From NCBI GenBank assembly GCA_963833125.1, contig CAWHWX010000018.1, forward strand, positions 96,001-160,000: 64,000 nt of DNA, written 5' to 3'. Shown here one piece after another: positions 20,231 through 24,632 of the stretch. The DNA comes from Candidatus Bathyarchaeota archaeon (GTDB lineage: Archaea; Thermoproteota; Bathyarchaeia; 40CM-2-53-6). Numbering within the stretch: the first letter of the stretch is position 1; each line of letters begins with the position of its first letter. The position numbers and the translations under genes were made by a program. The notes beneath the pieces are model-generated. The model saw only the letters and a program-made list of their open reading frames with translations. It had not been told where the DNA came from and searched no databases.

Positions 20231-21857
20231 ATGCAATTGATCAATCGCGCGACCCGAACAATACTGTTGGTCCTTCATTGTCCTCGCCATCCTGATGGTT
20301 GCGCTCAACGCTTTCGAATCAGCCCAGGCTCAGGCGGGCTTCGATTTCAGCGTGAGCTTAAATGGGTACTCGCTTGCGGTAGCCCCGAACCGTTCAGGGT
20401 ATGATCAAGTAACCGTTGCATTAGTTTCCGGTTCCCCTCAAACTGTGAACTTAACCTCACAGATTTCACCACAGGATGGAGAAGTGTCAGCGTATTTCGC
20501 TCAACCAGCGGGAAATCCATCATTCGTGACAACGCTCGTTGTCAACGCTCTGGCAGCCTCACCTGGCAAGATGTATACGATCTCCGTTACGGGCATGTCC
20601 CAAGGACTAACGCGGCAAGCACTTCCACTTGCGTTAACGATCAGCTGCCCTCAAGGGCCCTGCCCAAAATTGCACGTTGATTGGACGGACAAAACCTCTT
20701 ACTCACAAGGTGAATCGATCCAGTTCAGGGGATCAGGATTTTACCCAACCGATGTAGCAGCATCTTGCTTGACAACCGAGAACAATGGCACGGCCATATG
20801 CCAGAACCAGGCCTCCGCTGATGGTCAGGGGGATGTTTCAGGTTCGATGGTTGTAACCCCAAAAATACTGCTTGGCCCACAACAATTCTACCTGAAGGAT
20901 CTGACAAACGACCAACAATCCCCCAAGGTCCCGCTTACCATCCTCCAAGCGTCCCCTATCCTCACGACCGCCTATGTGGGACAAGGCTCCGTATCTCCAT
21001 CTTGCCCATCGGGCTGCGCACAACCTGTAGGGGAACTCGTGAACGTTACCGCTAGTCCGGCTGCAGGCTGGACATTCGCGGGCTGGAACATCACAGGGGC
21101 CACCTGCTTCGGCGGGCTTAGTTCAAACCCCTGCATGTTCACGATGCCAAATAACGGAGTGTCTGCCAACGCGAACTTCGTCCAATTTCAGACTCTCACA
21201 ACGACCTACATAGGACAGGGCGCAATCTCGCCCTCCTGCCCCTCAGGCTGCCAGGTGACCGTCGGGTCGACAGTATCAATCACGCCCACTCCATCTCCGG
21301 GGTGGATAGTCTCCGGTTACCACTTAACGAGCGGAGTCACCTGTGGCCCTCAGCCAGGATTTACTTGCGGCTTTATCATGCCCAACGTTCCGGTCAATTT
21401 TCAAGTGATATTCACAGAAACCACAGTAACCGCCAAAACAACCCTGACCGTCACTTCCTCGGTCACAACGCCTGTGACAAGTACGTCCGTGTTCGGAAGC
21501 ACATCCTCATCAACGATTACGATAATCACGGAATCGACGACCCAACTAAGCGGCACCCAGACAACAACCACACTATACTCGACTGGCAGCACAATAAACA
21601 CGCAAACACAATACTACGCGATAACTCAACTCTCGACGTTCACATCAACTACTACTTCGACTAGCTTGAACGTGCCCGATCCCCTAGTTGAACTCGCACT
21701 CGCAGCCATTATCCTCGTCTCATCGGCAGTTATCGGGGTTAGTCTAATCAAACAATTCCCAAGGCGGGGCATAATTTCATGCTCTAACTGCGGCTTCAAG
21801 AACTCCCATCCCGGAAAATATTGCTTGGGCTGCGGTGAACCCTTGAAGAGGACTTGA
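20231..21857 (+). CDS. Cell-surface protein: Ig-like and InlB-B-like repeats, Thr-rich stalk, TM helix, C-terminal zinc ribbon; frameshift in the signal peptide (~20275)
   Basis: Two GQGxxSPSCPSGC...PxxGW repeats; Thr/Ser-rich linker; TM helix; CSNCGFKN..GKYCLGCG. Confidence 0.75.
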
Positions 21858-21862
21858 CCGAA

Positions 21863-22403
21863 ATGGCTCGCCTCCCCTCAGCTCGCGTGAAGATCTCGAT
21901 TACTCATCATATTGGTCTGCTTTCTTGGCTTCTATTCATCACTGAGCATCTCAACAGCTCAGTCAACCTACACTTCAAACCTGACGCAACTCACAACGAC
22001 CTTCTCTACCACCACGAGTTTGACAACGATAACTAGTCCAACAATATTCTACACGACTACGACAGAGACTTTGAACTCAACCGTTCAGGGGACCCAAACC
22101 CTCGCCCAAACTTCAGTGATAATGGTTACGTCGAACTATACCATTATTCTTGGCGGTACGCTAACGCAAACCATCACGTCAATAGTCACCCAGGTTTCAA
22201 CTCAGACAACCCCACTGCTCGGAAACATTTGGGGCGAATCCTTAGCTATTATTCTACTTCTGAGCGCGATTGCAAGCTTTATTGTCCCTAGAGTTCGCTC
22301 CGTCCGTCCAAGAGGAACAATTTGTAGCGAATGCGGTTATCGAAACCCGCCCTTCGCCAAGTCCTTCTGCGTCAAGTGCGGTCATTCTTTGGAGCCAACG
22401 TAG
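21863..22403 (+). CDS. Thr-rich membrane-anchored protein with C-terminal zinc ribbon; probable N-terminal frameshift
   Basis: Thr-rich body, TM helix, CSECGYRNPPFAKSFCVKCG. Confidence 0.7.
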
Positions 22404-22444
22404 CCTTACTGTGTGAGGCTACTATTCCGGTTACTGCGGTTAAG

Positions 22445-22744
22445 CTACGACGCCACTCCAATTCTTCTCTTCGGTGAATGTTTCACGGAATAGTAGGGTG
22501 GTAACGCCTTAACTTCAAAGGTTCGATGGTTCTGCGTGGGGGCCTGACTAGTGTAGATATTTTGTTGGAACTGGGGGGATGGGAGTGGTTTGGTTTGGAA
22601 TTGTGTGTTGTTTCGTGTTGCAGCTGGATGCAAGAATGGCTGGCCGAAGGAATTGGTTTGTGTGAGCCAGAAGATAATTGGCAAAACTACGGTCACCGCT
22701 ACGAAGCCTGTGGCCATAACGAAGACTATAATGACTGCGTCCAT
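22445..22744 (-). CDS. Hypothetical single-TM protein
   Basis: Hydrophobic N-terminus, Q/P-rich tail, TATA-like element upstream. Confidence 0.5.
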   Translation of the reverse strand: MDAVIIVFVMATGFVAVTVVLPIIFWLTQTNSFGQPFLHPAATRNNTQFQTKPLPSPQFQQNIYTSQAPTQNHRTFEVKALPPYYSVKHSPKRRIGVAS

Positions 22745-22860
22745 TATTGACTCGCCTGTCGATACATGTATCTACGTTAATATACACATGAGTTTATATG
22801 ACTTTCGACAGTGACGATACATTTTTAAACACGCCTAGACACCACATTGCCCGACGATAA

Positions 22861-22971
22861 ATGAACAAGGACCTATCGAACTGGCTTAGAAAAAGGATGA
22901 CGCAAATAGATGAACGGGTTACAGAGCTCAAAGTGCGCATCCTAGATGGAGATGAGGTCAATGGCTGCTGA
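22861..22971 (+). CDS. 36-aa peptide resembling the N-terminal coiled coil of the downstream HTH protein (below ORF-track cutoff)
   Basis: Manual translation MNKDLSNWLRKRMTQIDERVTELKVRILDGDEVNGC*; aligns without gaps to DELKKWLESRFSKIDQRIGKLEQTI. Confidence 0.6.
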   Translation: MNKDLSNWLRKRMTQIDERVTELKVRILDGDEVNGC

Positions 22972-23317
22972 CGATGAGCTGAAGAAATGGCTTGAATCAA
23001 GATTCTCAAAGATAGATCAACGCATCGGCAAACTGGAACAGACAATCGCCGAAAGCAAGCAACCTAGAATCCGCATAGCTTGGTACAGAACCCTGCTAGG
23101 CATGACTGAATTAGGCGGGAAAGCCGGAACCGAGAAACTCGCAGATCACTTAGGCATAAGCAGGAGCGTAATCAGCGAATACCTAAACCGAATGGAAGAG
23201 GAAGGCATCGTAAAACGCGATTTCAACGAGGACACAAAGGAAACCTCGCGCTACATCTGGCAAATCGATTGGGAAACATTGCCACCAGAAATCGCATCCC
23301 GACTCAGAAAAAAATGA
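22961..23317 (+). CDS. Winged-helix transcriptional regulator with N-terminal coiled coil
   Basis: GTEKLADHLGISRSVISEYLNRMEEEGIVKR; SD-like GAGGT before the ATG. Confidence 0.82.
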   Translation: MAADDELKKWLESRFSKIDQRIGKLEQTIAESKQPRIRIAWYRTLLGMTELGGKAGTEKLADHLGISRSVISEYLNRMEEEGIVKRDFNEDTKETSRYIWQIDWETLPPEIASRLRKK

Positions 23318-23390
23318 GTACGGCTAGAGGCAAATTACACTAAGAACGAGTGAAAACTAAGTACCCTCGCTAAGAGGGCGCTGTTTCTCT

Positions 23391-24527
23391 TCAGGGGATT
23401 ATTGGGATGCGGTAGAAGCTGGAGAGAAATGGCCTCATTGATCTTGAAATGTCGTCCACGTCGCAATCCACACAAGACGGATCCAAGCGCAAAGGTATTC
23501 TCTTACTCCCATCTGCCAGCTCAACCTCGAGCAAAGCGTGACCCGGAAGTTTCCGTTTCTCACGTGTAGTTGCATCAGCGTATGTTCCTGGGGGGAGGAT
23601 GAGGAAGTGCATTCGTCTGAACGCGAGGCTGGCCAGCATGGAAGCCAATAGAACGACCTTACAGTCGCAGTCGCCTCCCGTTTTCATGGTTTCCCAAGGC
23701 CATCTAACGTATTCACCGAATGACTCGCCTTTGTAGATCACTTTGTCGCGGGAATATTCGAAGACGAGCGTAAGAAGCCTAAGCTGATCCTGGAACGATA
23801 GTTCTTGCGCATCTTGCGGCTTTTCTCCTCCAAGTGCAACCGCACCTATGGTCGTGGTCAGCTCGTCTACGACCGAATATTCGGGGTGATCCTTCGCTTC
23901 GACTACTCTGTTTAGCATCGTCAAGGCCACTTTCATTGTGCGCGGATCAAGAATTTGCTGGGGTTCAAGTTCTTCGACCAACACCTGTTTGGCACCGCAG
24001 TAGCGGCAGTAGGGTTCGTCGGCCCCTATTGTCTTGTTACAGGTGTGGCAATTACGCATCCGTTCCACGAAGGCCGTTTCTTCTTTCTTAATGAGTCCTC
24101 TCTGCTGTAGTCGGGTGAGAGAGTCGATGAGTTGTTCCGTGGTTACGTTCAGATCAGTGGAAGTCCTTCGTATCGATATTCCACCATGATGATCCTCCAA
24201 ATACTTGAGCACGTGGCCGTCCATGTCGGATGATTCCGTTGTATCGAGCATGCGTACGTTTATTGTAGGGCCAGGTTTGCCGGCTTGAGTAACCTGTCTG
24301 CTTTCCACTCCGACATAGGGCAGGGAGGCCTTAGACGTAGTTTCGATGGACGGTTCCGGTGGTATGAGTGACTTGCCACAGTTGTGGCAGAACTCTGATG
24401 ATGCTAGATTAATGGCCTTACAGGTCGAACATGTAGTGAGCCGCTGGCCGCATACGCCGCAATATGCTTGCCTTTGCCGGGCTGCGGTGCCACATTGCGG
24501 GCATTTCTGTGTGTTCTGTTGGGCCAT
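23391..24527 (-). CDS. Double zinc ribbon / winged helix / zinc ribbon / transglutaminase-like protein
   Basis: Six CxxC pairs; VLKYLEDHHGGISIRRTSTDLNVT wH; GDCDCK..LLASML, GHA, LDP catalytic triad. Confidence 0.75.
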   Translation of the reverse strand: MAQQNTQKCPQCGTAARQRQAYCGVCGQRLTTCSTCKAINLASSEFCHNCGKSLIPPEPSIETTSKASLPYVGVESRQVTQAGKPGPTINVRMLDTTESSDMDGHVLKYLEDHHGGISIRRTSTDLNVTTEQLIDSLTRLQQRGLIKKEETAFVERMRNCHTCNKTIGADEPYCRYCGAKQVLVEELEPQQILDPRTMKVALTMLNRVVEAKDHPEYSVVDELTTTIGAVALGGEKPQDAQELSFQDQLRLLTLVFEYSRDKVIYKGESFGEYVRWPWETMKTGGDCDCKVVLLASMLASLAFRRMHFLILPPGTYADATTREKRKLPGHALLEVELADGSKRIPLRLDPSCVDCDVDDISRSMRPFLSSFYRIPIIP

Positions 24528-24632
24528 GCTGTAACGCCAGTGTATTCCAGAGTTGCATACAGCCGCCCCCACGGAAATGTAATGCTTTCGGGTTCACCGA
24601 ATTAATCCACTGCGCTGGATGGAGCGTCCTGA

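Follow-up and report, generated by a model that had tools for sequence, protein, structure and literature searches.

Why should the gene of a small archaeal transcriptional regulator be preceded, and slightly overlapped, by an open reading frame (ORF) of 36 codons whose product resembles the first helix of that regulator? The arrangement lies in a stretch of 64,000 nucleotides (nt) from Candidatus Bathyarchaeota archaeon (assembly GCA_963833125.1, contig CAWHWX010000018.1, positions 96,001 to 160,000), hereafter the window. The ORF very probably encodes a functional protein of 36 amino acids (aa) that is paralogous to the N-terminal helix, alpha-1, of the downstream winged helix-turn-helix (wHTH) regulator, and we lean slightly towards the view that this peptide acts by binding the regulator.

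The regulator is taken to start at the ATG at 22961, where conservation begins in ten aligned orthologues (M-x-x-D-[DE]-x-L-K-K-W-L); these orthologues do not share the in-frame ATGs at 22946 and 22952. With the start placed by orthologues, the stop of the peptide ORF and the start of the regulator overlap by 11 nt (22961-22971), the two ORFs being in different frames, as the initial annotation of the locus had stated. The AlphaFold2 (AF2) model of the peptide is a single helix comprising residues 3-34 (predicted local distance difference test, pLDDT, 87.5) and contains no helix-turn-helix (HTH), also in line with that annotation. The 36-aa, one-helix peptide is thereby small and single-domain, as microProteins are by definition.

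The match between the peptide and the regulator N terminus had been described as gap-free, with the shared pattern L-x2-WL-x2-R-x3-ID-x-R-x3-L-x3-I, and BLASTP showed this description to be correct. Peptide residues 4-32 align with regulator residues 6-34 (11-39 of the 123-aa frame), with 9 of 29 positions identical and 18 of 29 positive (E 2e-5 as a single comparison), and the DNA of the two segments also aligns in register. The observed gap-free score of 55 was reached in none of 5000 shuffles, for which the mean was 22.3, the standard deviation 3.8 and the maximum 45. Searched against its own genome, the single peptide gives a weak match to the regulator (E 0.14), and a profile of the peptide family searched against the six-frame translation of the same genome finds the neighbouring alpha-1 as its only other significant match (E 5e-5, the next being 0.43 and 0.65). 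Comparison of the peptide family with the alpha-1 family by hhalign gives a probability of 96.7% and an E-value of 3.7e-10 over 28 gap-free columns. By the hhalign comparison, the own-genome profile search and the shuffles, the peptide is sequence-related to a domain of a larger protein, the second property that defines a microProtein.

The two helices also conserve the same positions. Per-position conservation is correlated between peptide and alpha-1 (Spearman rho 0.60, p 0.001, 27 positions), and W8/W10, L9/L11, R12/R14 and R19/R21 (peptide/regulator) are invariant in both alike. Across 46 aligned peptides M1, W8, L9 and R12 never vary, and at least 90% keep M13, I16, R19 and L23; the C-terminal tail is variable and rich in Gly, Glu and Asp codons. 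Peptide and alpha-1 share a common a/d heptad register (M13/F15, I16/I18, V20/I22, L23/L25 and I27/I29), the hydrophobic a/d residues of the peptide being L9, M13, I16, V20, L23 and I27. The simplest origin suggested by these sequences would be a partial tandem duplication of the 5' end of the regulator gene that took in the start codon and alpha-1, and this duplication would be older than the split of the two carrier genera (g1 and g14) of one Bathyarchaeia family.

Conservation of the ORF was examined in 102 loci from Bathyarchaeia genomes and from peat or soil metagenomes, consisting of the window's own locus, nine same-genus orthologues, 12 genome contigs and the best 80 of 129 metagenome contigs. 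We dropped 19 duplicates, in which 130 nt upstream and the regulator gene were identical, and four loci with less than 130 nt upstream, two of which (L047 and L059) visibly carry the peptide, to leave 79 unique loci; L013-L015 (26-32% identity) and L121 (39%) were judged non-orthologous and excluded. A locus was counted as intact if the motif W-[LF]-x2-[RK]-[MLS]-x2-[IVM]-[DEN] was found upstream of the regulator together with a start codon. By this measure the peptide ORF is kept in 52 of the 79 loci, with the start placed seven codons before the invariant Trp. The start codon is ATG in 45 of them, GTG in L022 and L023, and TTG in L066, L074 and L107, and L083/L084 begin two codons further upstream. 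Four of the intact peptides are shortened in frame to 28-31 aa (L048, L055, L060 and L067). Two variant loci stand beyond the 52, L024 having no start at the conserved position and L028 lacking N7-W8. The stop of the peptide and the start of the regulator overlap by 1, 4, 7, 11, 14, 17 or 35 nt in 51 intact loci, and are separated by a 2-nt gap in L048. One sister-genus genome, G330 (L108 and L122; the same metagenome-assembled genome as L022 and L024), has two copies of the locus: L022 holds an intact peptide with a GTG start, and L024 the peptide frame without a start at the conserved position.

The peptide is under purifying selection. A codon model (GY+F1X4 in iqtree2, on the topology of the regulator tree) fitted to peptide codons 2-24 of the 52 loci gave an omega of 0.174, with lnL of -1826.05 versus -1938.44 at omega = 1 (twice the log-likelihood difference, 2dlnL, 225); the same loci gave 0.051 for regulator alpha-1 and 0.031 for the remainder of the regulator. 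Because the motif-based choice of loci lowers omega, fits were added for the 17 codons outside the selection motif (omega 0.201, 2dlnL 135), for a deep clade in which all 17 members keep the ORF (omega 0.157, 2dlnL 80), and for the non-motif codons of that clade alone (omega 0.165, 2dlnL 54). Entropy at the first, second and third codon positions of the peptide is 0.84, 0.67 and 1.33, highest at the third. Since omega = 1 is rejected in every fit and the entropy follows codon position, the reading of the ORF as non-coding or as a chance frame is rejected. Conservation and purifying selection had been named at the outset as the test of the ORF, and both speak for it. A structured RNA in its place was considered and found no support: the predicted fold of 22855-22990 is no better than that of shuffles (z -0.59), and Rfam gives no match at E <= 1 in 22300-23500.

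The initial annotation had also asked whether an indel might separate what is really one protein with a tandem coiled coil. The varied stop/start geometries speak against such a fusion, and the relative frame of the two ORFs varies across intact loci, so that no common frameshift geometry exists. Among 72 regulator homologues none was found to be fused: by length, P0058 (153 aa) and P0066 (155 aa) alone could hold a fusion, and both are upstream-extended calls without the peptide motif. Contigs assembled from peat RNA libraries (four runs of one study) cover 22866-23021, 22901-23204, 22866-23002 and 22866-23034 of the window, and those of three of the four runs bridge both ORFs with no indel at the junction, as does one RNA-library contig from a relative of L011; such contigs show presence and cannot prove transcription, strand, 5' end or translation. 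Three of the contigs start at 22866, and none covers 22400-22865. This common start was not used as a 5'-end signal, since RNA ends cannot be read from contigs, a single study supplied all of them, and DNA may have been carried over.

Protein databases hold few members of the peptide family. The exact 36-aa sequence is absent from a collection of 15 billion proteins, as are three of the four other versions looked up there; the L011-type peptide is present, in a cluster of ten entries named 'hypothetical protein'. A profile of the family searched against 1.84 billion representatives gave 31 matches at E <= 1e-3, of which about 22 are proteins of 29-106 aa with the peptide motif, some of them divergent, and the remainder long repetitive coiled-coil proteins. 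Members of the family turn up now and then in independent gene calls. A Pfam scan of the peptide at E <= 1 returned KIP1 alone (E 0.099) and gave no membership in the SinI family.

The regulator itself is a generic wHTH protein. Residues 59-85 match Pfam HTH_24 (28.9 bits, cut-off 21.9) and HTH_5 (28.1, cut-off 22), whereas the MarR (22.5 versus 24.6) and MarR_2 (24.6 versus 27) models stay under their cut-offs, so that the protein is not a certified MarR. The AF2 model from a 57-row alignment (pLDDT 89.5) shows a helix at residues 2-31, a linker, the wHTH core at 39-102 and a short C-terminal helix at 109-117, with the core elements H39-50, E54-56, H57-64, H68-80, E84-88 and E98-102 in the topology H-E-H-H-E-E. 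Foldseek matched this model to MarR/ArsR-type and archaeal Lrs14-type wHTH structures (E 2e-4 to 2e-3), including YgaV, ZitR, MarR, MexR and AbfR2, and a sequence search of solved structures gave weak wHTH matches headed by HosA (E 0.0017). MarR/ArsR-type wHTH proteins dimerize via their terminal helices. The family is narrow, with 72 proteins among 5.8 billion, and its named members read 'winged helix-turn-helix transcriptional regulator [Candidatus Bathyarchaeia archaeon]'. Among 401 Bathyarchaeia-class genomes the gene occurs in 13 of the 58 of the window's own family (f1) and in none of 342 others; P0063-type loci (regulators 58-61% identical), sought as an outgroup, were not recovered in these 401 genomes, and no paralogue of regulator or peptide was found elsewhere in the window's own genome (3.07 Mb, 88% complete). 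In L054, a metagenome contig that has also lost the peptide, the regulator has an in-frame stop near codon 86 (…EEEGIVK*DFNED…), possibly a pseudogene or a sequencing error.

The upstream region suggests how the two ORFs may be expressed. A TATA-like pattern, A[TC]TTTTAAAC, was found in 38 of the 52 intact loci, ending 28-32 nt (mode 29) before the peptide start, and variant boxes such as GTTTTTAAAC in L010 are missed by the pattern. In archaeal promoter geometry a TATA-like box at this spacing leaves a leader of only a few nt. In 77 of the 79 loci the 16 nt before the regulator start contain a Shine-Dalgarno (SD)-like 4-mer, from a generous motif set of our own choosing; before the peptide start such a 4-mer is found in 10 of 52. 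As the TATA-like box lies about 30 nt upstream and the peptide has no SD motif, the peptide is probably a leaderless or near-leaderless first cistron, followed by the regulator as an SD-led overlapping second cistron.

Two further elements are candidate operators, through which the regulator might control both its own unit and the divergent gene upstream. The CGATAC half-site that abuts the TATA-like box is present at the same offset in 76 of the 79 loci (none is listed for L024 and L097, and its offset differs in L107). The start of the divergent gene is 17 nt away from the palindrome GATACATGTATC, and many loci have the form GA[TC]AC-N2-GT[AG]TC at the matching position; six sites of the exact pattern GATACNNGTATC occur in the 3.07-Mb genome, against one of a reversed control. 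A conserved palindrome between the regulator unit and the divergent gene suggests a dimeric regulator. These elements and the surrounding genes are collected in the table.

Table. Positions in the window of the peptide and regulator genes, their putative control elements and neighbouring genes
Feature	Position	Strand	Basis and remarks
Small-protein gene, 36 aa, one helix	22861..22971	+	ATG to TGA; sequence MNKDLSNWLRKRMTQIDERVTELKVRILDGDEVNGC; probable first cistron; very probable alpha-1 paralogue
Winged-helix transcriptional regulator, 118 aa	22961..23317	+	Pfam, AF2, Foldseek
Regulator helix alpha-1, residues 2-31, segment copied by the peptide	22964..23053	+	AF2 helix H2-31; hhalign
Winged helix-turn-helix core, residues 39-102	23075..23266	+	AF2 secondary structure; Pfam
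TATA-like box TTTTTAAA	22822..22829	+	Putative promoter role, from knowledge of archaeal promoters
CGATAC half-site abutting the TATA-like box	22815..22820	+	Candidate operator half-site or B recognition element; putative function
SD-like purine-rich GGAGATGAGG for the regulator	22948..22957	+	Within codons of the peptide's variable C-terminal tail
Perfect palindrome GATACATGTATC	22761..22772	.	Candidate operator for a dimeric regulator; putative function; between divergent genes
99-aa small membrane-type protein gene, divergent	22445..22744	-	N-terminal hydrophobic segment
393-aa multi-zinc-ribbon protein gene	23391..24572	-	Pfam DZR, Zn_Ribbon_1; weak TackOD1, HTH_PafC
Two Thr/Ser-rich protein genes	20295-21857, 21912-22403	+	Upstream of the locus

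About 25 related loci conserve the 99-aa minus-strand ORF as an open frame, while the plus frame that overlaps it has stops there; the ORF probably encodes a genuine small membrane protein and is a candidate target of the regulator. A 105-aa membrane protein occupies the same position in other clades, and a comparison found no relationship between the two. On the other side, the 393-aa zinc-ribbon protein has a tblastn match (E <= 1e-5) in 74 of the 79 loci, mostly directly downstream of the regulator; a few matches are weak or more distant, such as those in L023 and L107 (28-31% identity, upstream). Its gene usually converges on that of the regulator but runs in the same direction in the clade of L011, L012, L104 and L106, and it may form part of a module with the peptide and regulator. 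Towards the C terminus both Thr/Ser-rich proteins have a hydrophobic segment and, after it, a cytoplasmic zinc ribbon; the larger one has InlB B-repeat-like domains (Flg_new_2, E 2e-11) as well, and the two genes are syntenic in nearer clades only.

The peptide has been lost, truncated or degraded in 25 of the 79 loci. Deep deletions leave 16 codons in L051, L057, L065 and L068, ten in L063 and L064, and nine in L006; unrelated short ORFs stand in its place in L050/L071 and in L056; L081 has a premature stop at codon 14, L009 shows decay by point mutation and L008 a frameshift; and no trace of it is found in L007, L077, L078, L085 and L089. In the degraded clade of L008 and L091 a remnant lies in the regulator frame with a TGA as the sole separator. 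Since the deletions differ in structure and are nested among intact relatives in the regulator tree, several independent losses are indicated, on a tree whose support at those nodes is only 51-78 and which omits L054, L088, L090, L095 and L100 (stop within the codon range). In two database proteins related to L050/L071, P0007 and P0010, the peptide is deleted and its upstream ATG is joined in frame to the regulator, giving the latter an N-terminal extension of 6-11 residues, which suggests that the promoter-proximal start codon is what this lineage retains.

For the function of the peptide, which keeps the a/d core of alpha-1 and has W8, R12 and R19 invariant, we propose that it would pair with regulator alpha-1. 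Alpha-1 is taken to be the dimerization element of a wHTH regulator acting on GATAC-N2-GTATC, so that a heteromer with the peptide would carry one DNA-reading head and would for that reason bind the operator poorly. The peptide would in this way titrate or tune regulator activity, much as SinI does for SinR, and could serve as a built-in buffer, threshold or delay. That the effect on the regulator is antagonistic is possible rather than probable, and the whole explanation, from duplicated alpha-1 peptide and leaderless cistron to SinI-like titration, is the best that we can offer and a serious possibility somewhat short of probable. A fuller version, which we regard as doubtful, would make this the first archaeal cis-encoded microProtein: a single-helix dimerization mimic, derived from the 5' end of its own target gene and expressed as a leaderless first cistron, whose one-headed heteromers set a threshold or delay on an autoregulated repressor and which is tuned by repeated shortening and deletion. 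Complex prediction for regulator and peptide gave scores of 0.02 and 0.01 against a mark of 0.32, with no controls, and bears neither for nor against binding.

Several points weigh against SinI-like titration. The role of alpha-1 as a dimer interface is assumed by analogy, and several e-position charges differ between the helices, with E12, D19 and E26 in the regulator versus R/K10, D/E17 and K/E/S24 in the peptide. Constraint on the peptide is about threefold weaker than on alpha-1, and the motif-chosen set biases its omega downward, which the non-motif and whole-clade controls remedy in part. Many loci come from few peatland studies and are close relatives, so that the counts overstate independence, and the RNA-library contigs speak to presence alone. 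About a third of the loci lack an intact peptide, and the regulator is constrained as strongly there as elsewhere (omega 0.027 in 20 loci without the peptide versus 0.036 in the 52 with it; for alpha-1, 0.041 versus 0.051). The peptide is therefore dispensable and, being lost in many lineages, would be an accessory modulator and no obligate partner. Both proteins also come from one transcription unit, which leaves no room for an independently induced on/off switch of the SinI type.

The same single transcription unit suits an alternative that we consider unlikely, in which the peptide binds alpha-1 as a positive or specificity-changing subunit that affects bundle stability, oligomeric state or operator choice. 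The homology, heptad and selection evidence cited for titration serves this proposal equally, and a common mRNA with overlapping stop and start fits a stoichiometric partner better than a switchable antagonist. The repeated loss of the peptide with no altered constraint on alpha-1 or on the remainder of the regulator argues against an obligate subunit.

The junction between the ORFs invites a different proposal, namely that the ORF acts mainly in cis as a translated upstream ORF (uORF), setting the level of the regulator by termination-reinitiation or by SD occlusion and having little or no function in trans. Although seven geometries occur, the stop overlaps or adjoins the start in almost every intact locus, helix-deleted loci often keep a short ORF with the same start that ends inside the regulator start (nine codons in L006, 16 in L051, ten in L063 and 15 in L007), and the fused upstream ATG of P0007 and P0010 fits the same pattern. 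Short ORFs easily arise by chance, however. A sequence-independent uORF would let the peptide sequence vary freely, and what is found is an omega of 0.17 with alpha-1-like conserved positions over codons 2-24; the regulator also has its own SD-like motif in nearly every locus, and neither the RNA fold nor Rfam points to a structure. We consider an exclusively cis function quite unlikely, although the conserved overlap and the persisting remnant ORFs keep a cis role in play, one that is compatible with a role in trans.

More improbable again is that the peptide is functional on some other target, such as the divergent membrane protein or the neighbouring 393-aa zinc-ribbon protein, and resembles alpha-1 only as a legacy of its origin. 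The near-constant presence of the zinc-ribbon gene, mostly beside the regulator, and the small membrane-protein gene divergently upstream supply candidates, but the positions kept in the peptide are those kept in alpha-1, as if both faced a like partner, and the family profile finds no other such helix in the genome. Finally, a non-functional duplication remnant, chance ORF, assembly-split gene or programmed frameshift would accommodate the losses and the in-frame remnant behind a single TGA in L008/L091, and can be set aside with near certainty, given the rejection of omega = 1 (2dlnL 54-225), alternative start codons held at one position, a frame offset of +1 or +2 among loci with no conserved slippery site seen, and the same split in independent assemblies and RNA-library contigs with no fusion among 72 proteins.

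Archaeal small proteins are badly under-annotated, and the present family is one that is backed by selection statistics and has an adjoining, testable target. Should the peptide bind alpha-1, domain mimicry as a means of regulation, known from SinI/SinR and the microProteins of plants and animals, would extend to the archaea, and a gene that duplicates part of itself, its 5' end, in tandem would be a simple evolutionary route to it. The shortened and deleted natural versions provide a ready-made mutational series, and since the host belongs to an uncultured Bathyarchaeia lineage of peat and soil, tests would be made in vitro or in a heterologous host.

Known systems share parts of this arrangement. 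The function of leader peptides is usually independent of their sequence or set by residues near a stalling site. The peptide ORF resembles a coupled uORF or leader peptide in lying upstream on the same RNA and ending inside the start region of the main gene, and differs in the purifying selection that acts on its N-terminal 24-27 residues, which reproduce a domain of the protein encoded downstream. Truncated H-NS paralogues (H-NST) keep the oligomerization part only and antagonize H-NS. They are likewise prokaryotic mimics of the oligomerization part of a DNA-binding protein, although they are unlinked, horizontally acquired and of different fold, and target a nucleoid protein rather than a cognate neighbour. 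The eukaryotic microProteins Id/HLH and LITTLE ZIPPER poison dimerization, and the initial annotation had likened the peptide to them. The likeness holds for size and sequence-relatedness, two parts of the definition of a microProtein as worded in the relevant passages of PMC4807768 and PMC7584889. A closer prokaryotic precedent, SinI/SinR, had been overlooked. Unlike Id/HLH, LITTLE ZIPPER and miP1a/b, which are encoded at separate loci and separately regulated, the peptide overlaps its putative target gene. Keyword searches of open-access text found no archaeal precedent, which does not prove that none has been published elsewhere.

SinI/SinR of Bacillus subtilis is the closest known analogue. 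According to the passages of PMC3163267 on this system, the gene of SinI (57 aa) adjoins that of SinR (111 aa), an HTH repressor, and SinI shares the residues of the SinR oligomerization hook without its DNA-binding domain, so that the heterodimer abolishes DNA binding; sinI has its own Spo0A-controlled promoter and sinR is constitutive. Against this background the peptide and regulator ORFs differ in sharing a promoter region and overlapping, and the peptide copies one N-terminal helix rather than a C-terminal two-helix hook. SinR is a bacterial XRE-type HTH protein and the present regulator an archaeal winged helix, for which binding of the peptide is predicted by us, and there is no sequence relationship between the two systems. 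What they have in common is functional and architectural: a small protein encoded first, the sizes of both partners, a peptide that lacks a DNA-binding domain, and the logic that we propose for its action.

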